From: Ktedonobacterales bacterium
GTDB taxonomy: Bacteria; Chloroflexota; Ktedonobacteria; Ktedonobacterales; JADMIN01
Direction of reading: 5' to 3'
Length of the DNA stretch: 32,000 nt
NCBI GenBank assembly: GCA_030167145.1
Contig: CP126532.1
Coordinates: 1,800,001 to 1,832,000 of the forward strand
Each line of letters begins with the position of its first letter. The stretch's first letter is position 1. This document shows, piece after piece, positions 4,884 to 21,895 of the stretch. Position numbers and translations under genes: made by a program. A model generated the notes under the pieces. The model searched no databases, was not told the origin of the DNA, and saw only the letters and a list, made by a program, of their open reading frames with translations.

Positions 4884-7800
4884 CTATGCCCCCTCCCGAT
4901 ACATCCCCACCGGCAGCACTGCATAGCCGCCCGCGTCCGCCAGCGCCTCCACCACCGCGCGTGCGGTATCCAGTGACGTGAGACAAGGGATGTTGTGCTC
5001 CACGGCGGCGCGGCGAATCTGGAAGCCATCCTGTATCTCGATGCCCTCGCGGATCGGACCGCGCCCGCCGGTGATCGTATTGATAACGAGCTGCACCTTG
5101 CGCGTGCGGATCAGATCGAGAATCGTCGTGTGGCCCTCGCTGATGCGCCCCACCGAACCCGCGCGGATGCCTTGCTCGCTCAGCAGCCGCGCTGTGCCTG
5201 GCGTCGCGTAGAACATATAGCCCGCATCCGCCAGCGCCCGTAGAATCGGCATCGCTTCGCTCTTATCGCGGTCGGCGATAGAGACATACGCACACCCATC
5301 GCGTTCGGGAACGCTGATGTTCGCCGCCAGCAGCGCCTTGCGCAGCGCCGCCGCATATGTCTTATCCACGCCCATCACCTCGCCAGTGCTCTTCATCTCC
5401 GGGCCGAGCGCCATCTCGCCGCCAATAATCTTCTGCATCGAGAAGACCGGACCCTTCACCGCCACCAGCGGCTGCGCGGGCCACAGGCCATCGGCATAGC
5501 CCGCGTATCCCTGCTCCGCCAGCGTCACGCCCAGCATGATCCGCGTCGCCAGCGTCACCATCGGCACCCCCGTCACCTTGCTCAAGAAGGGCACTGTACG
5601 CGAAGCGCGCGGGTTGACCTCGAGGATATACACGTTCTCGCCCGGCGCGCTTCCATTCGGCTCCGTCAGCACGAACTGCGCGTTCATCAGCCCGCGCACC
5701 CCCAGCGCCAGCGCCAGCGCCCGACTGTAGCGCGCGATGGTGGCGGTCTCCTCGCCGCTCAAGCTGCGCGGCGGATACACCGCGAAGCTATCGCCGGAAT
5801 GCACCCCCGCCCGCTCCAGATGCTCCATGATGCCAGGAATCAGCACATCTGTCCCGTCGCAGATCACATCCACCTCCACCTCGCGTCCACTGAGGTAGCG
5901 GTCAATCAGAATCGGATGCTCGCCAAACTGCTCCACCACCCGCGTCACATAGCGTTCCAGCGCCGCCTCGGTGCGCACGATCTCCATTGCGCGGCCCCCC
6001 AGCACATACGACGGACGCACCAGCACCGGATAGCCAATCTCGTTTGCCACCGCCATCGCCTCGCCCACCGTGCGCACGCCCCCACCCTTCGGACGTGGTA
6101 TATTCAGCCGTTCGAGCACATCATCGAAGCGGCGGCGATCCTCAGCCAGATCAATGCTCTCCACCGATGTGCCCAGCAGCGGCGTGCCAGCGGCGGCCAG
6201 CGGCGCGGCCAGCCCGATAGCCGTCTGCCCGCCAAACTGTGTGACCACCGGCGGCAAGGAAGCGCCCGTTTCCGCCTCGTTTTCGAGGATGTTCAGCACG
6301 CTTTCGCTGTCGAGTGGCTCAAAGTAGAGCCGGTCCGACATATCGAAATCCGTGCTGACCGTTTCGGGATTCGAGTTGACCAGGATGCTCTGCACCCCGG
6401 CAGCGCGTAGCTCCTGGGCCGCGCGCACCGAACAATAGTCGAATTCGATGCCCTGGCCGATGCGAATCGGGCCGGAGCCGAGCACCAACGCCTTTTCGCC
6501 AGCCAGTGGCTCTGCCTCGTTCTCCTGCTCATACGTGCTATAGAAGTACGGCGTGCGCGCGGCGAATTCGGCGGCGCAGGTATCCACCATCTTATAGGTC
6601 GGCAGGATGCCCCACGCGTGGCGCAGCGCGCGAACGTCATGCGCGCCAGTGTCCGGCGCGGCGGAATCACCGGCGATGCCTGGGATCAGCGCCGCGATCT
6701 GCGCATCGGCGAAACCCATCCGCTTAGCCTGGCGCAGCAGCGACGGCGTCAGCGGGCGGCTGGCCAGCTTCTCTTCCAGCTTGACGATGTTACGCAGCTT
6801 GGCGAGAAACCACAGATCAATTCCGGTTTCGCGGTGCAGGTCTTCCAGCATGCCGTCGGCAGTATCGCAGCGGATCGTATCCAGCAACCGCCAGAGCCGC
6901 TGGTCATTCGGCTCGAATTCGCGGCCTTCGGGCACCTCCGCGCCGTCTTCGGGTTGCGCGGGCTTCAGCGCGTCCGGGCGGATCTCCAGCGAGCGCATCG
7001 CCTTTTGCAGCGCCGCCTCGAAGGTGCGGTCAATCGCCATCACCTCACCGGTGGCCTTCATCTGCGTGCCCAGGTTGCGGTCGGCCAGCGGAAACTTATC
7101 GAACGGCCAGCGCGGAATCTTGACCACCGCGTAATCCAGCGCAGGCTCGAAGGCGGCGACCGTCTTGCCCGTGATTTCGTTGCTGATCTCGTCCAGCCGC
7201 AGCCCAATGGCAATCTTCGCGGCAACGCGGGCGATGGGATACCCCGTCGCCTTCGACGCCAGCGCCGAACTCCGGCTCACGCGCGGATTCACCTCGATCA
7301 CATAGAACTGGAACGACTGTGGATCCAGCGCGAACTGCACGTTGCAGCCGCCCTCCACGCCCAGCGCGCGGATGATTCGCAACGACGCGGTGCGCAGCAT
7401 CTGATACTCGCGGTCCGAGAGCGTCTGGCTCGGCGCGACGACGATGCTATCTCCAGTGTGGATGCCCAGCGGATCGAAGTTCTCCATGTTGCAGACGGTG
7501 ATGCAGGCATCCGCGCTATCCCGAATCACCTCGTATTCGATCTCCTTCCAGCCCTTCAGATACTGCTCGATCAATACCTGCCCAATGGGGCTGGCGCTGA
7601 GTCCCGATGCGGCGATGCGCTCCAGATCAGCGCGCGTGCGCGCCACACCCCCGCCCGTGCCGCCAAGCGTGAACGCTGGCCGCACCACCACCGGCAGGCC
7701 GATCTCCTCCGCGAAGGTCAGCGCGTCGGCGACAGCAGTGACGGTCTTGCTGGGCGGTGCGCCAATCCCCAGGTCCAGCAGCAGTTGCTTGAATAACTCG

Positions 7801-8186
7801 CGGTCTTCGGCCTTCTGAATCGTCGCCAGCGGCGTGCCGAGCAGCTTGACGCTGAACTCGTCCAGAATGCCCGCCTCGTGCAGTTCGACGGCGAGATTGA
7901 GGCCCGTCTGTCCGCCCAGCGTCGCCAGCAGTCCGTCGGGGCGCTCGCGCTCGATCACGCGGCGCAGCACCTCCACTTTCAGCGGCTCGATATAGGTCAC
8001 GTCGGCCACGCCCTCGTCAGTCATGATCGTCGCTGGATTCGAGTTGACGAGGATTACACGCTTGCCCTCTTCGCGCAGCGCGCGGCAGGCCTGTGTCCCC
8101 GCGTAGTCGAACTCAGCCGCCTGACCGATGACAATCGGCCCTGAGCCAATGACGAGCACGCTCTCGATATCTTTCCGTACCGGCAC
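4884..8186 (-). CDS. carB: carbamoyl-phosphate synthase large subunit
   Basis: 1100 aa. It starts [33 protein letters not shown] and has two ATP-grasp halves (the second begins [21 protein letters not shown]). An MGS-like C-terminal domain is present. GTG start at 8186. Confidence 0.97.
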
Positions 8187-8221: not shown

Positions 8222-8246
8222 GGGCGTCCACCGGACGCCCCTACGG
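8222..8246 (-). repeat. REP2 hairpin repeat copy (GGGCGTCC-ACC-GGACGCCC-CTACGG)
   Basis: Reverse complement of the CCGTAGGGGCGTCC-NNT-GGACGCCCG units at 27414 and 29835. It sits in the 54-nt gap between the GNAT stop (8241) and the carB start (8186). Confidence 0.8.
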
Positions 8247-9113
8247 TATATCCACGAAGCTATACACATCCACATCACACACCGGACGGTAGCCGATCTG
8301 CTGGTAGATATGGTTCGCGGTTGGATTGGCGAGATTGGTATAGAGGAAGCAGAAGCGCCGCCCTTCATCCAGCAGCGCCTGGCTGGCAGCGGCAGTGCAT
8401 GCGCTGGCGTAACCCTTGCGCCGCAGTTCCGGCGGTGTATAGACCGGCCCGATACGCATGCCATTGGGCGTGGGACCCGTGAAGCCGACCATCGTCACCG
8501 GCTGGCCGTCCACTTCCCAGAGATACATGCCCCGCACCGGCGAATTGAAGACGCGATCTACCACCGCCTCGATGTCGGGTGGCGGACCGGGCAGCGGCCC
8601 CGCATCGTCGAAGAATCCAGCGGTCCAGGCGGTGAGTACCGCACGGTCGGCCTCGGTCGCGCGGCGCATACCGCCGGGAACGCCCGCCACTGGAACAACG
8701 GTATCAACTTGATAGATGCGCTCATTGATACTCAGGTGATAGGCCTGCCCTGTGCCCACCTGCCACATCTGCGCGAATTGCTTGCTCTGAGCGCTTGGCC
8801 CGTTCACACCTGGCAACTGATCGCCGTAAACGTTGCGCAAGTTATGCATGAACTGCTGGCCCGCTAGAAAGGCGATGCGCTCGTCAGCCGTGTACGCGAG
8901 AATCACCAGATGTGGCGGCGTGCGTATGGCTGCGGCCACCACCTCATCCCCCTCCGTCACCACCGCCAGATACGGCGGCTGCTCGTACTCATTGCTGTGC
9001 ATCAGCGACGAGCAGATGCCCAGCATCAGGTTGTTTTCCGCCTCGTGCGCCAGCAGAAATGACTCCGCCCGCTGATAAAACGCAGCGGCATCATCAAAGC
9101 GCGTCAACTCCAT
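8241..9113 (-). CDS. GNAT-family N-acetyltransferase (two-domain, about 290 aa)
   Basis: The C-terminal half has the acetyl-CoA motif PPELRRKGYASA plus LYTNLANPTANHIYQQIGY. The N-terminal MELTRFDDAAAFYQRAESFLLAHEAENNLMLGI is typical of this long GNAT subgroup. Confidence 0.8.
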   Translation of the reverse strand: MELTRFDDAAAFYQRAESFLLAHEAENNLMLGICSSLMHSNEYEQPPYLAVVTEGDEVVAAAIRTPPHLVILAYTADERIAFLAGQQFMHNLRNVYGDQLPGVNGPSAQSKQFAQMWQVGTGQAYHLSINERIYQVDTVVPVAGVPGGMRRATEADRAVLTAWTAGFFDDAGPLPGPPPDIEAVVDRVFNSPVRGMYLWEVDGQPVTMVGFTGPTPNGMRIGPVYTPPELRRKGYASACTAAASQALLDEGRRFCFLYTNLANPTANHIYQQIGYRPVCDVDVYSFVDIP

Positions 9114-9649
9114 GGCCGACCTCCTTCACCCACTCGCTTCTCATAGCGCGCGGCGATACGACGCGGCAGGGCGCGCTCCCCGCTATCCACAAAGCCGGCG
9201 CGCACGTAATACGCCCGCAGCGCCGGATTGTCCGCCATGCAATCCAGCCGCACATACGTTTTGCCTTCGCTCGCGGCGACACGCTCGGCCCACGCGAGCA
9301 TCGCCAGCCCAATCTCCTTGCCCGCGAAGCTGCGCGCCACCGCCAGCCCATGCACATACAGCGCGTCATCAGTGGCAGCTTCCGGCCACACCTCGCGGTC
9401 GTCGGCTTCCAGTGTGATCGTCCCAGCGGGTGCGCCATCGAGACTGGCGAGATAGATGACGCCCCGCGAAATCCGGCGGGCAACGATCTCGCGCATCGGC
9501 ATCGGCGGCAGACCCGGCGGCATGCCGCGCGCCTTCTGCCATTCGACCGCATCATCGTAGATCACCGTGAGCGCATCGGTATCCGCTGGCCGCGCCTGCC
9601 GGATATCCAATTCGCCATGTGGCGTGGTGATATTTTCGTCTCGTGTCAT
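9104..9649 (-). CDS. GNAT-family N-acetyltransferase (about 181 aa)
   Basis: Trimmed to ATG 9649, because the tracked 9892 start would overlap carA. Motifs are LYVHGLAVARSFAGKEIGLAMLAWAE and NPALRAYYVRAGF. A 10-nt ATGGAGTTGA overlap joins it to the next GNAT gene. Confidence 0.8.
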   Translation of the reverse strand: MTRDENITTPHGELDIRQARPADTDALTVIYDDAVEWQKARGMPPGLPPMPMREIVARRISRGVIYLASLDGAPAGTITLEADDREVWPEAATDDALYVHGLAVARSFAGKEIGLAMLAWAERVAASEGKTYVRLDCMADNPALRAYYVRAGFVDSGERALPRRIAARYEKRVGEGGRPWS

Positions 9650-9677
9650 GCGTTCCACTCGCTTCTTGCGGCGCACT

Positions 9678-9702
9678 GGGCGCACGCCGCGCGCCCCTAC
9701 GA
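9678..9702 (-). repeat. degenerate REP2-like copy (GGGCGCACGCCGCGCGCCCCTACGA)
   Basis: About 19 of 25 positions match the 8222 copy in the same orientation when aligned by eye. A GGGCGC...GCGCCC stem is retained. It lies in the 91-nt gap between the carA stop and the first GNAT gene. Confidence 0.45.
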
Positions 9703-9740
9703 CAGGTGCGGGCGCAGCCTGCCGCGCGCTATACGCCGTC

Positions 9741-10937
9741 TCATCCGGCCAGAGCAACGGTGTTCCGTTCGCGCGCCACCATCTCTGCGAAGCGGTCGAA
9801 GAGATAGCGGTTGTCTTCCGGGCCGGGGGCGGCTTCGGGATGATACTGCACCGAGAAGACCGGCAGCGTCTCGTGCGCCAGCCCCTCCACACTGCCGTCC
9901 GAGAGGTTGATGTGGCTTACATACAGGCCGCTCTCCGCCGGAATACTCACCGTATCCACCTGAAAGTTATGGTTCTGCGATGTCACCGTCACCCGTCCCG
10001 TCCGCACTTCGCGTACCGGATGGTTTGCGCCGTGGTGGCCGAAGGGGAGGCGGCTGGTACGCCCGCCCGCCGCCAAGCCGAGTATCTGGTGCCCCAGGCA
10101 GATGCCCATCAGCGGCATCCGCGCCTCCCACACCAAATGCCGTGTCAGCGCGATCAGTCCCGCGACGCTCTCCGGGTCGCCAGGACCATTCGAGAGCAGC
10201 ACACCATCCGGGCGCAGCCGCCGCACCATTTCCAGATCCACATCGTGCGGCGCCAGCACCACCTCGATCCCGCGCTCCGCCAGGCACCGTGCGATGTTGC
10301 GCTTGAACCCCGTATCAATCAGCAGCACCCGTGCCCGCTCCGCTCCACCCTCCCCTTCCCTACGAGGGAAGGGGTCGGGGGTTAGGTCTTCCCATTCCTC
10401 GACCTCGGCGCTTGAGACATCGCCTACAACATCCAGATCCGAGACCGAACGGACCTGTTTCGCTTCGGCGACCAGCGCCGCGATATCTGGCGTCTCGCCA
10501 GGAGCGTAGGCGCGCATCACGCCGCGCAGCGTGCCGTTCGCCCGCAGGTGCCGCGTCAGCGCGCGGGTATCGAAGTCGCACATCCCAGGAATCCCATTCG
10601 CGGCCAGATAGTCGTCGAGCGACGCCGCCGCGCGCCAGTTGCTATATTCATCGCAATATTCGCGGACCAGCAGCGCCGAGAGCCACGGACGGCGCGACTC
10701 CACATCCTCTTTGGCGACGCCATAATTGCCGATCAGCGGGTACGTCAGGCAGACCATCTGCCCGCGATACGATGGGTCGGTGCAGATCTCCTGGTAGCCA
10801 GTCATGCCCGTGGCAAACACCACCTCGCCGCGTCGCCCATCGCGCAGCGCATCCACCGCGCCGAACGGACGCCCGTAGAAGACCTTGCCATCTTCCAGCG
10901 CCAGCACCGCGAACGTTTCGCTCCGCTCTATCTCCAT
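9741..10937 (-). CDS. carA: carbamoyl-phosphate synthase small (glutaminase) subunit
   Basis: The N-terminal domain begins MEIERSETFAVLALEDGKVFYGRPFGA...GEVVFATGMTGYQEICTDPSYRGQ. The class-I GATase has MPLMGICLGHQIL (catalytic Cys) and VQYHPEA. A GGAGG RBS is present. Confidence 0.96.
   Translation of the reverse strand: MEIERSETFAVLALEDGKVFYGRPFGAVDALRDGRRGEVVFATGMTGYQEICTDPSYRGQMVCLTYPLIGNYGVAKEDVESRRPWLSALLVREYCDEYSNWRAAASLDDYLAANGIPGMCDFDTRALTRHLRANGTLRGVMRAYAPGETPDIAALVAEAKQVRSVSDLDVVGDVSSAEVEEWEDLTPDPFPRREGEGGAERARVLLIDTGFKRNIARCLAERGIEVVLAPHDVDLEMVRRLRPDGVLLSNGPGDPESVAGLIALTRHLVWEARMPLMGICLGHQILGLAAGGRTSRLPFGHHGANHPVREVRTGRVTVTSQNHNFQVDTVSIPAESGLYVSHINLSDGSVEGLAHETLPVFSVQYHPEAAPGPEDNRYLFDRFAEMVARERNTVALAG
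10350..10389 (+). repeat. REP1 hairpin repeat copy located inside the carA coding sequence
   Basis: ctCCCCTTCCCTacgAGGGAAGGGGtcgggggttaggtct. It matches the intergenic copy at 10971 at 36 of 40 positions. In carA it is translated on the minus strand as DLTPDPFPRREGE. Confidence 0.85.
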
Positions 10938-11012: not shown

Positions 11013-12410
11013 TCAGTTCCCCGCAGCGTAGACCAGCTTGCCGCCGAGCCAGGTCTGGCGCACGCGCCCGTGCAGCGTCAGCCCAGTCAGCGGCGTATTC
11101 TTCCCCTTCGAGGCGAAGCGCGCCGGATCCACGACCCATGCCTCGTTCGGATCGAAGACCGTGATATCCGCATGCGCCCCCACCTTCAGCGTGCCCGCAT
11201 CCAGATTCCACGCCCGCGCCGGCCGCACCGTCAGCGCCGCGACCAGCGTAGCCAGATCCAGCCGCTCAACATGAACCAGCGCCAGCAGCGACGCCAGCGC
11301 CGTTTCCAGCCCAGAGATGCCGAACGCCGCTTCGCCATACTCACAGGCTTTATCGGTCAGTGTATGCGGCGCATGGTCGGTGGCAATGGCGTCAATCGTG
11401 CCGTCGCGCAGCCCCGCCAGCAGCGCCGCGCAATCCTTCGCTGTTCGCAGCGGCGGATTCACCTTGGTATCCGTGTCGTAGCGTTCGCCGGGCAGCACCG
11501 GCACGCCAATCTCCGCCAGCGCATCCGCCAGCGGGCCAGTGCGCTCCCCCGCCACCCAGGCGTCGGTCAGCAGCAGGTGATGCGGCGTGACCTCAGCGGT
11601 GACGGGCAGCCCTTCGCGTTTCGCCTGGCGAACCAACTCCACCGCTCCGGCGGTGCTGAGGTGCGCCGCGTGATACTTCGCGCCGGTCAGCCGCACTAGC
11701 GCCAGGTCGCGCGCCAGCATCACCTCTTCGCCCTCCGCTGGCCAGCCCTTCAGCCCCAGCAACGTCGAAATCTGCCCCTCGTGCATCACCCCGCCGCCAA
11801 CCAGATCCTCATCCTGGCAATGCTCCACCACCGGCAGCCCCAGCGGCGCGGCATATTCCAGCGCCGAGCGCATCAGCTTGCTGCTGGCTACCGGGCGCCC
11901 ATCGTCCGAGAAAGCCACCACGCCCGCCTGCGCCAGTTCCACCATCTCACTCAGCTCATGCCCGTCCTCGCCCTTGCTGATCGCCGCGATTGGCCCAATG
12001 CGCACAGGCGCGTTCTCAGCCGCGCGCAACACATACTCTAGCGTCGCGCGTGAATCAATCACCGGCTGCGTGTTCGGCATGCAGCAGATCGTCGTGAAGC
12101 CGCCGCGCGCCGCCGCTTCGGCCCCCGTGGCGATCGTCTCTTTCGCCTCGAATCCGGGCTGGCGCAGATGCGCGTGCAGGTCTACGAACCCTGGCGCAAT
12201 CACGCTTCCCGCTGGCTGGCGCAGGGTCATGCGCTGCTCAGGCCCAATGTCCAGTTCGCTCAGTTTCGCTTCCACATCCTGCTCGCTGCCAATCGCGGCG
12301 ATGCGCCCATCTACGATCAGCAGCGCGCCGGAGCCATCCATCCCCTGACTTGGATCGAGGATGCGCGAACCAGCCAGGATGATCGCGGCGTACTCTTGCG
12401 GCTCTCTCAT
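11013..12410 (-). CDS. pyrC: dihydroorotase (long, allantoinase-like class)
   Basis: Contains VIAPGFVDLHAHLRQPG (HxH metal site) and ATDHAPH. It sits between pyrB and carA. Its start codon directly abuts the pyrB stop. Confidence 0.93.
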   Translation of the reverse strand: MREPQEYAAIILAGSRILDPSQGMDGSGALLIVDGRIAAIGSEQDVEAKLSELDIGPEQRMTLRQPAGSVIAPGFVDLHAHLRQPGFEAKETIATGAEAAARGGFTTICCMPNTQPVIDSRATLEYVLRAAENAPVRIGPIAAISKGEDGHELSEMVELAQAGVVAFSDDGRPVASSKLMRSALEYAAPLGLPVVEHCQDEDLVGGGVMHEGQISTLLGLKGWPAEGEEVMLARDLALVRLTGAKYHAAHLSTAGAVELVRQAKREGLPVTAEVTPHHLLLTDAWVAGERTGPLADALAEIGVPVLPGERYDTDTKVNPPLRTAKDCAALLAGLRDGTIDAIATDHAPHTLTDKACEYGEAAFGISGLETALASLLALVHVERLDLATLVAALTVRPARAWNLDAGTLKVGAHADITVFDPNEAWVVDPARFASKGKNTPLTGLTLHGRVRQTWLGGKLVYAAGN

Positions 12411-13778
12411 CTATTCTCCCCGCTTCTGATCCGCGCCAGCGACTAGTTCCAGCGCCGCCATGCGAATCGCGACGCCGTTGGTCACCTGCTCTTCGATGAC
12501 CGACGCGTCGCCGTAGGCTACCGCCGGATCAATCTCCACGCCTTCATTCATCGGGCCTGGGTGCAGCACCAGCGCACCTGGATTCGCCAGCTTCAGCCGT
12601 TCCGGCGTCAGCCCCCACACTGCGCTATACTCGCGTATCGAAGGCAGCAGCCCCGCCTGCTGGCGCTCGCGCTGCAGCCGCAGCGCCATCACCACATCCG
12701 CGCCCTCCAGCGCCCGCTCGATATGCGGCTCCACGATCACCTCGCGCCGCGCATCCGTGCCAGGAACTGGCCGCGCGGCGTAGAGATCAGCGGCGGCGGG
12801 CGGCAGCAGCGTCGGCGGGCCGCACAGCACCACTGTCGCGCCCATCGCCGTCAGCGTCCAGATATTCGACCGCGCGACGCGGCTGTGCAGGATGTCGCCG
12901 AGAATCACGATACGCCTGCCCCGGACCGGACCCAACCGCCGCACAATCGTATATAAATCCAGCAGCGCCTGCGTGGGATGCGCGTGCCACCCGTCGCCCG
13001 CGTTCAACACCGAACCGTCAATATGCCGCGCGATTAAATCCGGCGCGCCCGCCTGGCTGGAGCGCACCACCACAATCCGCGCGCCCAACGCCTGAAGCGT
13101 GCGCACCGTATCTATCAGCGATTCACCCTTGGTGACGCTGCTCGCCGAAGCCGTCACATTGGTCACATCCGCGCCCAGCTTCTTGCCCGCTAGCTCGAAC
13201 GAGACGCGCGTGCGTGTGCTGTTCTCATAAAACAAATTGACCATCACCTTGCCGCGCAGCGTATCTAGCTTCGTCTCAGGCCGCGCCAGCGCCGCGCCCA
13301 TCGCGTCCGCCCGCGCGAACAGCGCGCCAATCTCGCTCGCGCTCCAATCGTCCACGTCCAGCAGATGCTTGCGCACGCCGTCGGCAGATGAGGGTGCGTG
13401 TGTCTGCTCCGCATGCCCATGTGCGGCTGGATTCCGCTCCTCCTCGATGATCTGCAGGCAGAGGTCAACGCATTCGTTGCAGATATGCACCCCACCCGGC
13501 CCGGCAATCATCGCATTCACCTGCTCACGGCTCTTGCCGCAAAAGGAGCAGCGCACCAGCCCGCCCACTTTCTCCTTATACGGGTCAGCGGCGGTGAGCA
13601 CGCGCGTATGCGCGGGTAGCGCCAGCGCCGATTCCGCGTTCGCCAGCACCTCGGTGAAGGCGTGCGTACACTCGTCGCAGACATAGACCCCGCCCGGCCC
13701 GGCGATCAGGCGCTGCACTTCGTTCTGCTCTTTGCCGCAGAACGAGCAGCGATACGTTATGCGTGTCGTCTTCGCCAT
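12411..13778 (-). CDS. pyrB: aspartate carbamoyltransferase catalytic chain fused to two N-terminal ClpX-type C4 zinc-ribbon domains
   Basis: The ATCase core (about 13376-12411) has [21 protein letters not shown] and [12 protein letters not shown]. The N-terminal 134 aa contain two units, [21 protein letters not shown] and [25 protein letters not shown], each C-x2-C-x19-C-x2-C. It is a single uninterrupted ORF with a GGAAGG RBS, 11 nt after the pyrR stop. Confidence 0.9.
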
Positions 13779-14365: not shown

Positions 14366-14394
14366 ACAACCTCCTGCTCACCGGCCCAGAGCAT

Positions 14395-14434
14395 AAAAAA
14401 ACCTTCACAGCCACCACCATTGGTGACGTGAAGG
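14395..14434 (-). terminator. intrinsic terminator (attenuator) in the pyrR leader
   Basis: The minus-strand RNA reads CCUUCAC-gucaccaaugguggugg cu-GUGAAGG followed by UUUUUUU (the A-run at 14395-14401 on the plus strand). It lies 30 nt upstream of the pyrR start. Confidence 0.8.
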
Positions 14435-14494
14435 CATCTTCTGGGCCGCCGATTCGCCCCCGCATACTGGGCGCGCGCATACGCCATCGGTCTA

Positions 14495-14528
14495 CTCCTT
14501 TCCAGCCTCACGGGACTGGTCTTAAAGG
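14495..14528 (-). promoter_or_regulatory. PyrR-binding RNA motif (anti-antiterminator loop)
   Basis: The minus strand reads CCUUUAAGACCAGUCCCGUGAGGCUGGAAAGGAG. This fits the conserved PyrR binding-loop pattern (UUUAA..CAGUCC.G.GAGGCUG..AAGGA). CGUGAGGC could alternatively pair with the terminator 5' arm GCCUUCACG, forming the antiterminator. Confidence 0.7.
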
Positions 14529-14543
14529 AACTTCTGAGATAAG

Positions 14544-17126: not shown

Positions 17127-18227
17127 CTAGGGCTGTGGTGTCGCGCTGGGCTTCGCCGGGCTGACCTCCTCCATCAGCGCCACCAACTCGCGCATCCAGC
17201 GCAGCAGCGACTCCAGGTCCGCATCCCGCGCCGAGAGGCCGCGATACGTCACGCGCGTATAGCTCAGACCAAACGGCGTCGCACGCACGATGTCGGTCTT
17301 GCCTGGTAGGAACCCGCGACCCGCTTCGGCGACCTGCCTCATCCGCTCCAGAAACGTCGCCGGAAGCGCCTGCCCTGATTCCGGCAGCACATAGTAATAC
17401 AGTGTTGGCTTGCGCGCCACTTCGCTCGTACCGCCAACCATGCGTCCCTGGAACTGTTGCTGTGTCTGCTTTGGCGCGGGTTCTGGGCTGATGCGAAATG
17501 AGAGAATGTCGCGCGGCGACCCCATCTGCGTATTCAGCGTGTAGGTGACGCTAGCGCTGCTGCTCAGCACGAAGACCGTCCCGCTGGAGACCTTCACCGG
17601 GTGCTGTGGATCATAGTCCCCAGAGAGCATGAGCGCCGCCTGCCGTCCCACCGGTCCGCGCACGCTCCAGCCGTGCGCCGATGCGAAATCGCGCACCGCG
17701 CGCAGATGCTTCAGACGGCCCCAATAGATCAGCGAGAATCGCGCGAGCGGTGCACCTATCGGTGGCGCATCGCCAACCGCCAGCACCAGCGCGAAGATTG
17801 CCAGCGGAATCGAGGCAATGATGCTCAAGGTGGTCACGAGATTGAGCGCATACTGGCCGCCACCCTGAAAAACCGCGCCCGATGCTAAAGCGAGCGCAAA
17901 CGTTGCCGCGCTAAAGGTCGCCACCAGCGAGAATCGCCCAGGGAGTGGCGTCAGCGTCAGCAGCGCCGTAACCGCCGCGACCACGGTCAATAGCATCAGC
18001 CATCCAGCGCCACCACCATGCTGGGTGTATTGCCAGAGACCGGTTACGCCCGGCACGCGCGCTGTGGTCCAGAAAAACGCGCTCGCCACCGTGATGAATA
18101 CCGAACTAGCCAGCACAAATATCAAGCAGATCGCGCGGATCGCACGGTTGTGCGAGAGGCCGCCCATCCTTTCGATGCTGTCGCCAAACAATGATTGCAG
18201 CAGATTTTGCAATACACCACTGAGCAC
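17127..18227 (-). CDS. membrane protein (about 6 TM segments) with a soluble C-terminal domain of about 190 aa, unknown function
   Basis: GTG start at 18227 preceded by GGAGGTGGAG. The N-terminal half is hydrophobic. The C-terminal half (FASAHGWSVRGPV...RWMRELVALMEE) has no motif I recognise. Confidence 0.6.
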   Translation of the reverse strand: MLSGVLQNLLQSLFGDSIERMGGLSHNRAIRAICLIFVLASSVFITVASAFFWTTARVPGVTGLWQYTQHGGGAGWLMLLTVVAAVTALLTLTPLPGRFSLVATFSAATFALALASGAVFQGGGQYALNLVTTLSIIASIPLAIFALVLAVGDAPPIGAPLARFSLIYWGRLKHLRAVRDFASAHGWSVRGPVGRQAALMLSGDYDPQHPVKVSSGTVFVLSSSASVTYTLNTQMGSPRDILSFRISPEPAPKQTQQQFQGRMVGGTSEVARKPTLYYYVLPESGQALPATFLERMRQVAEAGRGFLPGKTDIVRATPFGLSYTRVTYRGLSARDADLESLLRWMRELVALMEEVSPAKPSATPQP

Positions 18228-18551
18228 ACTCCACCTCCGCCGTCCCTAAGCAAGCCATTGCACCAGTATTCGCCACCCACAGAGCCCGAATCATGCGGGT
18301 GCGAAACTACTCTCGCAAAACGGGGCGCATGTGTCAAGCATGGTCGCGAGTCTTGGCGAAAAAGAGCAATGCCCGCGCTGTGGCATACAGAATGCGTCAT
18401 TTCAGGCGCAGCGACGAAGCGTCTTCTGGCGGCATCGCACCCCACCGCGCCCGTGCCTCACCCGCACTGTGCCCGCACTGCGCCCAACGAAGACAGCGTC
18501 CGCACCTATGTACCGCCCAGGACGAGGTTTCATGACGAGGAGTTGAAGGAC

Positions 18552-20042
18552 ATGGCGACCCTTAGCCCGCCGGAGAGCGAGTACGATACACATCCCATCC
18601 ACACCAGCGCCGAAACCACCGTTGAGGATGCCCCCACCGCTACACCCGCCCCTACCCCTGAGCCGCCGCATGCGCCACGCAAACAAGTGGTGGGGAGTCT
18701 GATTCTCGCCGGGATGATGGTCGTGCTCTTCTGGGCAGGCTTCAGTGGGCAAGTGCGCCCACCCGTAAACGGCTCCTGGGGCGACATCTATCGCTATCAG
18801 TGTTTCGCCTCGTCGTTCTGGGGTGGCGAGCAGGCGATGAAGGGTGCGTTCGCCATACAATGCGCCGACGTGCGAGTGACATACGCCCGTTACCCCGCGC
18901 AGGTGCTCGCTTCGCCACTGCTGCCCGATGCTCTGGGACGCTGGATCGTCGCGCACGGCTCACTCGCCACGCCGCTGCACACCCTGCCAATCGAATATCC
19001 AGTGCTCTCGCTGATCCCATTCTCGCTGCCGCTGCTCGCGCCACCCGCGTACTACACCGTCGTCTTCGGCATCATCATGACACTACTCACCCTTGCCGTC
19101 TATGCGCTGCTCGCCCGCTTCGCCAGTTGGAACGCGGCAGGCTTCTTCGCCCTCTGCATGGGCATCGGCGCATACAGCACCGGCGCCGAACGCTTCGACA
19201 TCCTGCCCGCCGGGCTGACGCTGGCCGCACTGCTGCTCGCCGAGCGTCATCGGTGGCTGTGGGCCTACATCCTGATCGCCCTCGGCACATTCCTCAAATA
19301 CTATCCAATCGTGCTCCTGCTGCCGCTCGTGGTGATGCATCTGCGCGCGCTGCCGGGCGGCTGGCGCGAACGGCTGCGAGGCATCGCCAAACCGCTCGGC
19401 GTCTTTGCTGGTATCTGCGTGACACTCCTGTTCATCACCGCGCTCATCAACCCGATGATCCTCTATCGCCAGGTCTCCACCCTTGCGCGCCGCCCAATTG
19501 AAGTAGAATCGGTCTCCGCGACCTTCGCCTGGCTCGGCTCTCAGCTCGGCATCCCGATGGAGCCGTTTGTGCAGTTCGGCTCCGACAACGTCAACACCCC
19601 CTTGGCATCCGCGCTCACACTGCTCGCGCTATTGGCTCTGGTTGCCGGACTAGCGCTGCTGCTCTTCAGCCTCTGGCGCGGCGCTATCTCCGCGCGACAG
19701 GTGTGGCTGGTCACGCTGCTGCTGGTGGCCGTCACGGGCAAAGTATTCAGCGCCCAATACTTAATCTGGCTGCTCCCATTCGCGGCCTATGTGGTCGCGC
19801 TTGAAGGGATGACGCCGCTGCTCTGGCTGGCCGCCTGCGCACTCACCACCTTTGGCTACCCATTCCTCTGGCGCGAGGATAGCGGTGGCTGGCACGCGAT
19901 CATCGCCCTCCGCAATCTGGTGATGCTCTGGCTCGTGCTGACCTACCTCCCACTGCAAGACATACCTGCCTTGCTCCGCTCCCTGCGCGCGGCAGGCGAT
20001 ACAGCGCGTGCGCGCTTTCGAGTTCGTGTGCGCTCCGGCTGA
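18552..20042 (+). CDS. polytopic GT-C-like membrane glycosyltransferase (DUF2029/GT87-like)
   Basis: Trimmed to ATG 18552 (GAGGAG RBS). A Pro/Thr-rich N-terminus is followed by about 10 or more TM helices. PIEYPVLSLIPF and FLKYYPIVLLLPLVV resemble DUF2029-type mannosyltransferase-like proteins. Confidence 0.5.
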   Translation: MATLSPPESEYDTHPIHTSAETTVEDAPTATPAPTPEPPHAPRKQVVGSLILAGMMVVLFWAGFSGQVRPPVNGSWGDIYRYQCFASSFWGGEQAMKGAFAIQCADVRVTYARYPAQVLASPLLPDALGRWIVAHGSLATPLHTLPIEYPVLSLIPFSLPLLAPPAYYTVVFGIIMTLLTLAVYALLARFASWNAAGFFALCMGIGAYSTGAERFDILPAGLTLAALLLAERHRWLWAYILIALGTFLKYYPIVLLLPLVVMHLRALPGGWRERLRGIAKPLGVFAGICVTLLFITALINPMILYRQVSTLARRPIEVESVSATFAWLGSQLGIPMEPFVQFGSDNVNTPLASALTLLALLALVAGLALLLFSLWRGAISARQVWLVTLLLVAVTGKVFSAQYLIWLLPFAAYVVALEGMTPLLWLAACALTTFGYPFLWREDSGGWHAIIALRNLVMLWLVLTYLPLQDIPALLRSLRAAGDTARARFRVRVRSG

Positions 20043-21895
20043 TGCTGCCTATGATGACCACTCACCGCACGGCTGGTACTGCACGCGACGCTGGCGCATC
20101 GCCCCATCTGGCGGCGTGTGCGCGCGTCTTCGCGAGATCACCCATCGTCGTCGGCGCGCTGGTCTACGCCGTCGCATTCTGCGTGATCCTACAAGCCAGT
20201 CTACAGGTGATGTCCCGCATCTCGCTCACCGGTGATGAGCCGTGGTACATCCTCCAGGCGCTTTCGTTGCTGCGCTATCATAGCGTAGATGTCACTCCCT
20301 TGCTGCATAACCACGCCGTCTATGACCCACTCGTGCGCCACTGGGACGACCACACCCGCGATTACGCCGGCAACGGCGAGCATGTGCTGCCCAATCTGCC
20401 CGGCTACGCCGCGATCATCGCCCCGTGGTATCAACTCGGCGGCCATGCAGGCATCGTCGTCTTTCAGGTCGCCGTCTCCGCGCTCACCGCGACACTGATC
20501 TTCGACGAAGCGCGGCGGATGTTCGCATCCCCTGTCGCGGCGCTCTTTGCGCTTCTGGCCTATCTGCTGGCGCTGCCAGCCCTCCTCTATGCGGAACAGG
20601 CCTTTCCGTCCACAGTCGCGTCGGGGGTCGCGTTCCTGGCTTTCGTGCTAGCGGCGCGGACAATACCATCGGCGCGTGGCTGGCACGTGTGGCTGCTGGC
20701 ATGCGTCACAGGGCTACTTGTAGCCGCGTTACCCTGGATTCACTTCAAGTATGCGCTGGCTGCCATGGCGCTGGTTGGGGTCGCCGCGCTGGCGCTGCAT
20801 CCGCCGCTGCGACACTGGCGCGCGCTCGATGGCAACGCCCGTCGCGCCTGGGCCATACTCATCATCATCGCCGGTTCGCTATCTATCAGCCTCCTGCTCA
20901 TCAGCCTCTATAGCAGCCGCTACTTCGGCGTCTGGACGCCGCAATACTCCTCCGTGCCCAACACCGCGCCCGATTTCGCCCATCCCAATCTCCAGCGCCT
21001 CGGCATCCTCTTCTGGGATGTCTTCTTCGACCCACAAAGCGGGCTGCTGCCGTGGGTTCCACTCTACTTCCTCGTGCCGTTGGGCCTGGCGCTGCTCTGG
21101 CGCCGTCAGCGCCGCTGCGCGCTCATGCTGCTGTTCATGCTGGTGGGCTTCCTCAGCGCGTTCCTTCCGGCGCTCGTCACCAATCAGATTGTCCAGGGCT
21201 ACGCGCTGCCCTCGCGCTTCAGCGTCGAGTGCGCGCCCTACCTCACTCTGGCCGTCGCCGCCGTCTTCGCCGCCACCAAACCGCGCCGCTGGCTGCTCGC
21301 CCTCCGCAGCCTCCGGAATCGCGCCGCGCGGGCCGCCAGCCCGCGCATGCCGTGGGCACGAGTAGCCACGCAGGCCAGCATAGGGTTGCTGTGCATCGCG
21401 CTGCTCGCGACCGCTGGCTGGTTCACCATCATGGGCGTGCGCGACCCAGAGTTGCTCTATCATAGTCTGGCCGGGCCGCGCCTGGTAGAGAAATACCCTC
21501 AATTGCTGCCCGCCTGGTGGTTCGGTCTCTTTCCCCCAAGCACCGGCCCGCTCGACTATCAGGGAGCCATGCCGCTCATCGCTGGCCCCGCCTCCAGCCA
21601 GCGCAGCGCGCTCGCGCAACCCATCCCCCCCGGCGCGTACATCGCCACGTTCCATTTCGCCTGTATGCACGCCGCTCCGGCGCGGCTGCGCCTGGCGGCT
21701 GAGGTAGACATCGGCACGCATGCCACCGTGACACGACCCCTGTCAGCGCTGCGCTGTCAGCAACCTGGCATGGAACTGCCCACCATGTCCGTGCCATTCG
21801 TCAGCGCGGGCTATGAGCCGGTCAGCTTCCTCACCCACCTGCCGGAAGGCGCTCCATTGCTCTCGGTCATCGTCACCTTTGCGCCCACACGCTAG
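20042..21895 (+). CDS. polytopic GT-C-like membrane glycosyltransferase (ArnT/PMT, GT39/83-like)
   Basis: A TGATG junction links it to the upstream gene. A first-loop motif LTGDEPWYILQA (the acidic DE typical of GT-C loop 1) is present. There are many TM helices and a C-terminal soluble domain of about 150 aa. Confidence 0.5.
   Translation: MLPMMTTHRTAGTARDAGASPHLAACARVFARSPIVVGALVYAVAFCVILQASLQVMSRISLTGDEPWYILQALSLLRYHSVDVTPLLHNHAVYDPLVRHWDDHTRDYAGNGEHVLPNLPGYAAIIAPWYQLGGHAGIVVFQVAVSALTATLIFDEARRMFASPVAALFALLAYLLALPALLYAEQAFPSTVASGVAFLAFVLAARTIPSARGWHVWLLACVTGLLVAALPWIHFKYALAAMALVGVAALALHPPLRHWRALDGNARRAWAILIIIAGSLSISLLLISLYSSRYFGVWTPQYSSVPNTAPDFAHPNLQRLGILFWDVFFDPQSGLLPWVPLYFLVPLGLALLWRRQRRCALMLLFMLVGFLSAFLPALVTNQIVQGYALPSRFSVECAPYLTLAVAAVFAATKPRRWLLALRSLRNRAARAASPRMPWARVATQASIGLLCIALLATAGWFTIMGVRDPELLYHSLAGPRLVEKYPQLLPAWWFGLFPPSTGPLDYQGAMPLIAGPASSQRSALAQPIPPGAYIATFHFACMHAAPARLRLAAEVDIGTHATVTRPLSALRCQQPGMELPTMSVPFVSAGYEPVSFLTHLPEGAPLLSVIVTFAPTR

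Follow-up and report, generated by a model that had tools for sequence, protein, structure and literature searches.

A lineage-specific aspartate carbamoyltransferase of Ktedonobacterales with a tethered tandem of ClpX-type zinc ribbons

Introduction

Aspartate carbamoyltransferase (ATCase), whose catalytic chain is encoded by pyrB, is a textbook case of enzyme regulation. To our knowledge, the solutions found in bacterial ATCases are association with the regulatory chain PyrI, partnership with dihydroorotase (DHOase), or no regulator at all, and most bacterial enzymes, namely those of classes A and C, do without PyrI. This work concerns the pyrB gene in a 32-kb stretch of DNA from a soil Chloroflexota bacterium of the order Ktedonobacterales (contig CP126532.1, positions 1,800,001 to 1,832,000; hereafter the window, with positions counted from its first letter), in which the catalytic chain is preceded by two zinc-binding domains (ZBDs) of the type that opens the unfoldase ClpX. 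ClpX-type docking domains on ATCase would be a fourth arrangement, and they point to a control that works through protein-protein docking or proteolysis and not through nucleotide allostery.

When the closest described systems are compared from a structural point of view, the E. coli-type class B enzyme also combines a catalytic chain with a Cys4 zinc domain, that of PyrI. However, the PyrI zinc domain belongs to a different family, is rigidly docked to the catalytic chain and is accompanied by an allosteric domain that binds nucleotides, whereas the ribbons described here sit on a disordered tether. A class B holoenzyme has PyrI next to or fused with pyrB, and neither the open reading frame (ORF) studied here nor the scanned genes of its operon contain it. 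The class C ATCase of Bacillus subtilis and the enzyme of Aquifex are nearer in that they share the core fold (35-39% identity), the lack of PyrI and an operon with pyrR and pyrC; they measure only about 290-305 aa, though, and have no N-terminal zinc module. The Aquifex-type ATCase-DHOase complex offers a further parallel, as pyrC abuts pyrB in the window and the predicted core resembles 3d6n_B, a likeness read here from genes and a model.

The N-terminal ZBD of E. coli ClpX (1OVX, 2DS5-2DS8) is a constitutive dimer (1ovx, 2ds5; PMC7804408), in which F16 and I46 form a hydrophobic pocket that binds trigger factor; the trigger-factor effect depends on this pocket, which overlaps the lambda-O site, and the same hydrophobic region is used by the adaptors SspB and RssB (PMC7804408). 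The ribbons of the window protein belong to the same family (PF06689), with the same C-x2-C-x19-C-x2-C spacing, about 50% identical residues and conserved equivalents of F16 and I46. In contrast to ClpX, they form a covalent and asymmetric tandem without an AAA+ unfoldase, and their pairing is predicted within one chain, not between two. As an accessory domain at the end of a non-Clp protein, the ClpX ZBD has one parallel in cyanobacterial σ70 factors carrying zf-C4_ClpX (PMC11119718), where the host protein is different and the arrangement is likewise uncharacterised.

Two further systems are relevant for what the module might do. B. subtilis PyrB is targeted by the ClpCP protease during glucose starvation (PMC5746743), and whether ClpXP degrades the antitoxin MqsA depends on the zinc loading and the oxidation of the zinc domain of this protein (PMC8808172). 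As in MqsA, the folding state of an N-terminal zinc-binding domain could decide whether proteolysis takes place; nevertheless, the zinc domain of MqsA is unrelated to the ClpX ZBD, and it is the ClpX N-domain that recognises MqsA, whereas the putative substrate described here has a ClpX-type N-domain itself.

One reading frame joins two zinc ribbons to an intact catalytic chain

As the initial annotation had it, pyrB is one unbroken frame of 455 codons and a stop (12411-13778 on the minus strand), opening at an ATG. The profile scan proposed there returned every expected family: zf-C4_ClpX (PF06689) scored 122 bits (cutoff 27; E=8.7e-36) over two separate stretches, OTCace_N covered residues 137-278 and OTCace residues 287-445. 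The NCBIfam models for the ATCase catalytic subunit agree, with 368.6 bits for PRK00856 (cutoff 263; residues 137-446) and 292.9 bits for TIGR00670 (cutoff 237), so that the assignment of two ClpX-type ZBDs and an ATCase rests on matches over the cutoffs. The core was also described as intact, and the catalytic motifs STRTR (187-191), HPTQ (267-270) and LHPGP (405-409) are indeed present, at sites that are invariant in a 67-sequence alignment except for T269, replaced by Ser in some homologues. The core of the AlphaFold2 model matches the ATCases of B. subtilis (3r7l; Foldseek target TM-score, TMt, 0.90, E=1.2e-27) and Aquifex (3d6n_B; TMt 0.92).

The two ribbons provide the Cys quartets C11/C14/C34/C37 (nt 13668-13748) and C77/C80/C100/C103 (nt 13470-13550), and no other C-x2-C-x19-C-x2-C unit occurs in any frame of the window; a six-frame scan of the whole window with the looser pattern C-x2-C-x(12-30)-C-x2-C likewise placed ClpX-like ribbons in the pyrB ORF only. 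Of the pattern given in the initial annotation, the cysteine spacing is correct, but the spacer from CSFCGK to (L/M)IAGP measures seven residues and not eight. No AAA+ domain was detected by Pfam in the ORF, so the ZBDs are not attached to an unfoldase, and the ClpX models of NCBIfam reached only 77.5 and 69.4 bits (cutoffs 359 and 371), with the ZBD as the sole matched region. Neither PyrI domains nor any other nucleotide-binding domain were found in the ORF by Pfam, and the model of the fused PyrB/PyrI (PRK13376) scored 71 bits against a cutoff of 800. The protein is thus almost certainly a lineage-specific PyrB of the Ktedonobacterales, in which a normal, PyrI-independent catalytic chain carries tandem ribbons of the ClpX N-domain type at its N-terminus, on a disordered leash of about 20-30 residues. 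Each part is a known family, and the combination fits no described class of ATCase.

The fusion of ClpX-type ribbons with pyrB is genuine. An artefact, or two separate genes read as one, is ruled out by the unbroken frame, by the recurrence of the fusion in at least 54 clusters from several sources and by a neighbour-like base composition: the G+C content at third codon positions (GC3) is 0.792 in the ZBD module, 0.792 in the ATCase core, 0.797 in pyrR and 0.796 in pyrC, so the module has a native composition. Only 11 nt separate the pyrR stop codon from the pyrB ATG at 13778, and an SD-like (Shine-Dalgarno-like) sequence precedes the ATG of the long form in 7 of 7 loci, the window and six related ones. 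The initial annotation had also considered a ZBD-less PyrB translated from the in-frame GTG at 13376. This GTG does exist and codes for V135, but it is not preceded by an SD-like sequence and its position is unconserved in the six related loci. Across the same seven loci, internal starts in the tether region mostly lack an SD-like sequence, two loci having a weak 4-nt match, and none occupies a conserved position; a conserved internal start giving a ZBD-less isoform is therefore unsupported by this comparison.

Architecture of the ribbon pair and its tether

The second ribbon, ZBD2, justifies its earlier description as a near-textbook ClpX ZBD. It aligns with the E. coli domain (1ovx/2ds5) at E=2.4e-13 in phmmer, sharing CSFCGKS, LIAGP, ICxECVDLC and IIxEE, and the predicted fold, a beta-hairpin zinc ribbon followed by a C-terminal helix, lies within 0.6-1.2 Å root-mean-square deviation of 2ds5, 2ds6 and 2ds8 (TMt 0.87-0.90), the best modelled ribbon superposing on 2ds5/2ds8 at 0.6 Å over 40 residues. 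Among 17 two-ZBD homologues, seven of the eight zinc-ligand cysteines are invariant and the eighth, C103, is conserved in at least 90%, with P0011 as the sole exception. F79, L106, C107 and I110 of ZBD2 are invariant in the same set. The equivalent of ClpX F16 is invariant across all 67 fused ribbons, and ZBD2 and the single ribbons of the one-ZBD forms described below also have a conserved equivalent of I46. In one group of two-ZBD proteins (locus L003, P0013, P0015 and P0016), ZBD2 retains its four Cys ligands, but its LIAGP loop has decayed to MALAA or MALTA, which suggests relaxed or altered constraint on this loop in one subclade.

The two ribbons are not equivalent. ZBD2 retains the helix C-V-x-L-C-x-x-I-I-x-E-E, with invariant equivalents of L42, C43 and I46, whereas in ZBD1 the L42 equivalent is replaced by Ala in 15 of 16 sequences and the I46 equivalent by Val or Ala; at the sequence level the pair is asymmetric, with a degenerate helix in the first unit and a canonical one in the second. 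The linker between them is also constrained, since in the 17 homologues A53 and P55 never vary and L54 and T58 are kept in at least 90%. Its motif is similar to SALPTPHEI, the segment next to the ZBD on its C-terminal side in E. coli ClpX.

The AlphaFold2 model of the full protein, built on the 67-sequence alignment, has a mean predicted local distance difference test score (pLDDT) of 87.4, with 90-96 in both ribbons, generally high values in the core, 70-84 in the inter-ribbon linker and less than 50 at residues 121-132. When residues 1-125 were modelled alone, with a 17-sequence alignment, the predicted TM-score (pTM) was 0.74 at a pLDDT of 82. Two independently placed domains of 45 residues would give a pTM of about 0.4, and a fixed ZBD1-ZBD2 arrangement is therefore predicted. 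In this model ZBD1 and ZBD2 would form one compact unit, an intramolecular pseudo-dimer that would correspond to the ClpX ZBD dimer, but built from one chain and asymmetric. Foldseek also returned GATA-type matches, which prompted the consideration of nucleic-acid binding by the module; they were insignificant (E >0.04, TM <0.3) and the idea was rejected.

Across the family, the tethers that join this unit to the core have a mean length of 32 aa, consist to 82% of small, polar or Pro residues and are poorly conserved. Most one- and two-ZBD ATCases (P0002-P0012, P0021-P0030) have a W-(Q/R/T/I) motif about 10 residues past the last ZBD helix, for instance GARWR, STWQIR or AEWQAK, which may be a short linear binding motif; the window protein is without it.

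Distribution of the fusion and its ZBD-less relatives

The distribution of the architecture was surveyed in the best 120 clusters at 90% identity found with the full protein. Two ribbons occur in 17 of them (426-479 aa; P0011, whose second ribbon is one Cys short, is included), one ribbon in about 37 (379-423 aa) and none in about 66 (310-375 aa). The fusion is thus found in at least 54 clusters, of which all named examples are uncultured Ktedonobacterales. Six species representatives of GTDB encode it, all of them metagenome-assembled genomes (MAGs) of Ktedonobacterales type, with two ZBDs in L001-L003 and one in L004-L006, and plain ATCases are encoded at other loci of Ktedonobacterales, Dehalococcoidia and Chloroflexota. 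When ZBD2 was searched with phmmer against 1.84 billion representatives, only two ATCase-bearing clusters at 50% identity (P0008 and P0203) were among the top 150 matches, which makes the fusion phylogenetically narrow. The contig of L004 (JAJPIU010000111.1) is labelled 'Proteobacteria bacterium', and yet has a single-ZBD pyrB of Ktedonobacterales type, with 69% identity to the window protein; wrong binning or a wrong label of this MAG contig is the probable reason. The initial annotation knew of no characterised ATCase with this architecture, and literature searches found, in the library covered, no paper describing either a ZBD-ATCase or the free-standing ZBD proteins treated below, the sole related item being a census of accessory domains in cyanobacterial σ factors (PMC11119718).

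Within this narrow range, presence and absence of the module alternate between close relatives. ZBD and ZBD-less forms are interleaved in a neighbour-joining tree of the catalytic cores, a tree that carries no support values. The core of P0009, a two-ZBD protein, is 88% identical over 319 residues to that of P0062, which has none, and their loci (L002 and L082, respectively) are syntenic, with 84-86% nucleotide identity on both flanks; the sole difference between them is a replaced pyrR-pyrB spacer and N-terminal leader. The replaced segments are not alignable, and the alignment does not give the direction of the change, gain or loss. The window protein itself (P0001) shares 81% core identity with the ZBD-less P0029, whose pyrB is directly abutted by pyrR. 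The order pyrR-pyrB-pyrC-carA-GNAT-carB is kept in the ZBD-less loci L081-L083 and in the other compared loci, with pyrR abutting or overlapping pyrB in L081 and L083 and lying 52 nt upstream in L082. No separate ZBD gene precedes pyrB in the ZBD-less relatives L007-L010, L070 and L081-L083. As judged from these comparisons, the module is an accessory that was recently gained or lost; since nearly identical orthologues are without it, it appears dispensable for catalysis, and both the ATCase function and the layout of the operon are independent of it.

The tandem ribbon outside ATCase

Although the ClpX ZBD is usually seen as a part of ClpX, sequence searches indicate that it is a widespread mobile module, often in tandem and often free-standing, and that the tandem form is not peculiar to ATCase. 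The phmmer search with ZBD2 retrieved 13,115 representative proteins at E<=1e-3. The highest scores belong to short proteins (90-300 aa) that contain two to six ribbons, and in longer ones tandem ribbons are joined to TPR arrays, to an Hsp70 ATPase with Sel1 repeats, to Clp_N, to a LuxR/GerE helix-turn-helix domain or to MshEN. A search with residues 1-125 yielded hundreds of free-standing proteins of 97-135 aa, with about 90% coverage of the module and 45-54% identity; where named, they are called 'ClpX C4-type zinc finger protein [Ktedonobacteraceae bacterium]'.

These free-standing proteins (for example P0339 and P0359), none of which is characterised, have the same order of units and the same asymmetry as the ATCase module, with a degenerate helix in unit 1 and the canonical LC-EII-EE helix in unit 2; they differ in standing without an enzyme, whereas here the module is fused to PyrB within a pyr operon. 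In a comparison with 156 of them, ZBD1 of the ATCase is closer to their first ribbon (119.5 vs 100.2) and ZBD2 to their second (112.9 vs 95.0). The single ribbon of the one-ZBD ATCases is, in contrast, closest to genuine ClpX (139 to E. coli; 60% identity). A tentative reading is that two architectures of ZBDs were acquired by ATCase, a ClpX-like single ribbon and a tandem pair, and such a repeated fusion would point to selection.

Genes for free-standing tandem ZBD proteins (104-126 aa) were seen in three contexts on Ktedonobacteraceae contigs (L084-L090; genes at 5001-5318, 5001-5381 and 5001-5315). Each of the three lies 1-4 genes downstream, on the same strand, of an extracytoplasmic function (ECF) σ factor of 186-188 aa and of a protein of 266-272 aa without a Pfam match, a candidate anti-σ factor. 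This hints at a role of the free-standing proteins in σ/anti-σ control. Another unusual match, P0138 (268 aa), is a fragment of ClpX that contains its ZBD and the beginning of its AAA+ module twice, in nearly identical copies; this duplication of the ClpX N-terminus may be genuine or may stem from the assembly.

Possible functions of the module

The explanation that we favour regards the ribbons as a portable accessory pair with a Clp-linked docking function. The module keeps the hydrophobic pocket (the F16/I46 equivalents) by which the ClpX ZBD dimer takes up adaptor tails and degrons, and may act as a tethered peptide-docking platform through which ATCase is connected to the network of Clp adaptors and proteases. 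ATCase would then be turned over conditionally, in starvation or differentiation, or else be protected from turnover, and a post-translational layer would come on top of the attenuation of the operon by PyrR. This proposal draws on the conserved pocket, on the portable and tethered nature of the module, on the binding properties of the ClpX ZBD (PMC7804408) and on the link between PyrB and ClpCP in B. subtilis (PMC5746743). With the pocket conserved and PyrB a known Clp substrate in that species, the connection to the ClpX adaptor/substrate network that the initial annotation had raised is plausible. Taken as a whole the explanation is plausible, if somewhat short of probable; its specific step, the coupling of ATCase to Clp-type regulated turnover by a docking module, we infer more tentatively still, as one possibility.

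Several points weigh against this explanation. No interaction partner of the module was identified, and in the compared loci the presence of ZBDs is not accompanied by any terminal extension of PyrR or PyrC. F16 and the other pocket residues may be conserved for folding rather than for ligand binding, and the ZBD1-ZBD2 interface is read from a single quantity, the pTM, and from a 17-sequence alignment. We know of no characterised precedent for a ZBD on a substrate. Moreover, the frequent gain and loss of the module could mean weak selective value. Finally, the known link between PyrB and a Clp protease involves ClpC in Firmicutes (PMC5746743), not ClpX in Chloroflexota.

A bolder version of the docking explanation holds that the tandem mimics the ClpX N-domain dimer in a single chain, so that a housekeeping enzyme equipped with its own docking site reads the adaptor and degron code of ClpX, a substrate-encoded form of regulated proteolysis that would be used on many proteins of Ktedonobacteria. 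A dimeric adaptor might then bridge the ZBDs of ATCase and ClpX, or the zinc/redox state might gate an N-terminal degron, and the many host proteins would include the free-standing copies beside ECF σ/anti-σ pairs. If true, this would be a previously undescribed mode of regulated proteolysis, but we consider it rather unlikely.

Three other explanations appear to us less likely again. In the first, the eight conserved Cys ligands serve as a zinc- or redox-gated N-terminal degron: the ribbons would be inert when loaded with zinc, whereas oxidation or zinc loss would unfold a tail of about 130 residues and allow AAA+ proteases to engage ATCase. The N-terminal position of the module on a disordered tether and the precedent of MqsA and ClpXP (PMC8808172) fit this idea, which would work equally well for one-ZBD and two-ZBD forms. 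However, it leaves unexplained both the recurrence of a ClpX-type ribbon with a conserved ligand pocket and the conserved motif of the inter-ZBD linker; we regard it as improbable.

In the second, the module is a scaffold for a non-Clp partner and recruits DHOase, carbamoyl-phosphate synthase (CPSase), PyrR or a free-standing ZBD protein, resulting in a metabolon or in sequestration. The occurrence of ZBDs on proteins as diverse as those with TPR, Hsp70, LuxR and MshEN domains, where they behave as general protein-protein interaction units, is in favour of a scaffold, as are the abutting pyrC gene and the resemblance of the core to the ATCase of the Aquifex DHOase-ATCase complex (3d6n_B, TMt 0.92). 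Nevertheless, no partner motif was identified, and the C-terminal tails of PyrR, PyrC and PyrB, considered as ZBD ligands, do not differ between ZBD and ZBD-less loci, the termini of PyrR and PyrC being the same in both, which makes such a role quite doubtful.

The third corresponds to the suggestion of the initial annotation that the ribbons are a built-in oligomerisation or allosteric module replacing PyrI. Here ZBDs of different chains would dimerise and thereby join two catalytic trimers in a hexamer or a higher assembly, altering cooperativity or nucleotide sensitivity. The constitutive dimerisation of the ClpX ZBD (1ovx, 2ds5; PMC7804408) and an operon without pyrI, as far as its genes were scanned, agree with this, and bridging is more credible for the single-ZBD forms (about 37 clusters), where each chain of a trimer has an unpaired ribbon that could pair between trimers. 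In the two-ZBD forms, on the other hand, the predicted pairing is between the two ribbons of one chain (pTM 0.74), so that none would be left over to cross-link trimers, and the long disordered tether (residues 121-132 with a pLDDT below 50; family mean 32 aa) provides no docked interface and does not suit a rigid allosteric module. Neither the allosteric and zinc domains of PyrI nor a nucleotide-binding domain were found by Pfam, and most bacterial ATCases lack PyrI anyway. ZBD-less orthologues with cores 81-88% identical occupy the same pyrR-pyrB-pyrC-carA operon, which argues against the ribbons replacing PyrI, as nothing needed replacing. A PyrI-like allosteric subunit is hence disfavoured, and the oligomerisation reading in its wider sense is distinctly unlikely.

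Least likely of all, and very improbable, is near-neutral accretion of a module without a specific role in ATCase, or a mis-called gene with an internal start: the interleaving of both forms in the core tree, the recent indels and the in-frame GTG at V135 would be compatible with it, but at least 54 clusters, at 64-72% identity, have kept the ligands and pocket residues, two ZBD architectures are attached to the same enzyme family, and the annotated ATG has both its SD-like sequence in all seven loci and its close spacing to pyrR, while the internal starts mostly lack the former and are not positionally conserved.

The ATCase fusion is an easy entry to the study of the module, with a simple enzyme assay and natural, nearly identical ZBD-less controls.

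Genomic context

The features of the window that bear on pyrB are collected in Table 1. The initial annotation was right that pyrI is missing from the operon: none was found among the genes scanned by Pfam, namely pyrR, pyrB, pyrC, carA, the two GNAT genes and carB. Upstream of pyrR, a candidate leader RNA matches the PyrR-binding-site family RF00515 over the full model (1-115) with 48.3 bits and E=3e-5, under the gathering score of 54; no Rfam family reached its gathering score anywhere in the window.

Table 1. Features of the pyr operon and of the ZBD-ATCase gene, in window positions
Feature	Position	Strand	Basis or remark
carB (carbamoyl-phosphate synthase large chain)	4884..8186	-	Pfam CPSase_L_D1, D2, D3 and MGS
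Two GNAT acetyltransferase ORFs, between carA and carB	8241..9892	-	Pfam Acetyltransf_1 in both
carA (carbamoyl-phosphate synthase small chain)	9741..10937	-	Pfam CPSase_sm_chain and GATase
pyrC (dihydroorotase, 465 aa)	11013..12410	-	Pfam Amidohydro_1 and DHOase; start abuts pyrB stop
ZBD-ZBD-ATCase ORF (pyrB)	12411..13778	-	Complete, 455 codons and stop; GGAAGG 5 nt 5' of ATG
ATCase catalytic core (residues 136-455 and stop)	12411..13373	-	OTCace_N, OTCace, PRK00856, Foldseek
Disordered tether (residues 116-135)	13374..13433	-	Between ZBD module and core; low pLDDT
ZBD2 (residues 74-115)	13434..13559	-	Canonical ClpX-type ribbon and helix; best Pfam stretch 76-113
Inter-ZBD linker (residues 47-73)	13560..13640	-	Conserved motif; pLDDT 70-84; short predicted helix and strand
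ZBD1 (residues 8-46)	13641..13757	-	ClpX-type C4 zinc ribbon, diverged helix C37-THAFTEVL
pyrR-like phosphoribosyltransferase, 191 aa	13790..14365	-	Pfam Pribosyltran E=6e-22
PyrR-binding-site-like leader RNA, 5' of pyrR	14392..14532	-	Rfam RF00515, under gathering score

Three ORFs of the window had no Pfam match at E<=1e-5; they lie at 17127-18227 on the minus strand and at 18195-20042 and 20042-21895 on the plus strand, and encode proteins of 366, 615 and 617 aa, respectively. Finally, the insertion of one or two GNAT genes between carA and carB is conserved in pyr operons of related Ktedonobacterales, the ZBD-less loci L081 (7603-8661), L082 (7700-8212) and L083 (7662-8543).

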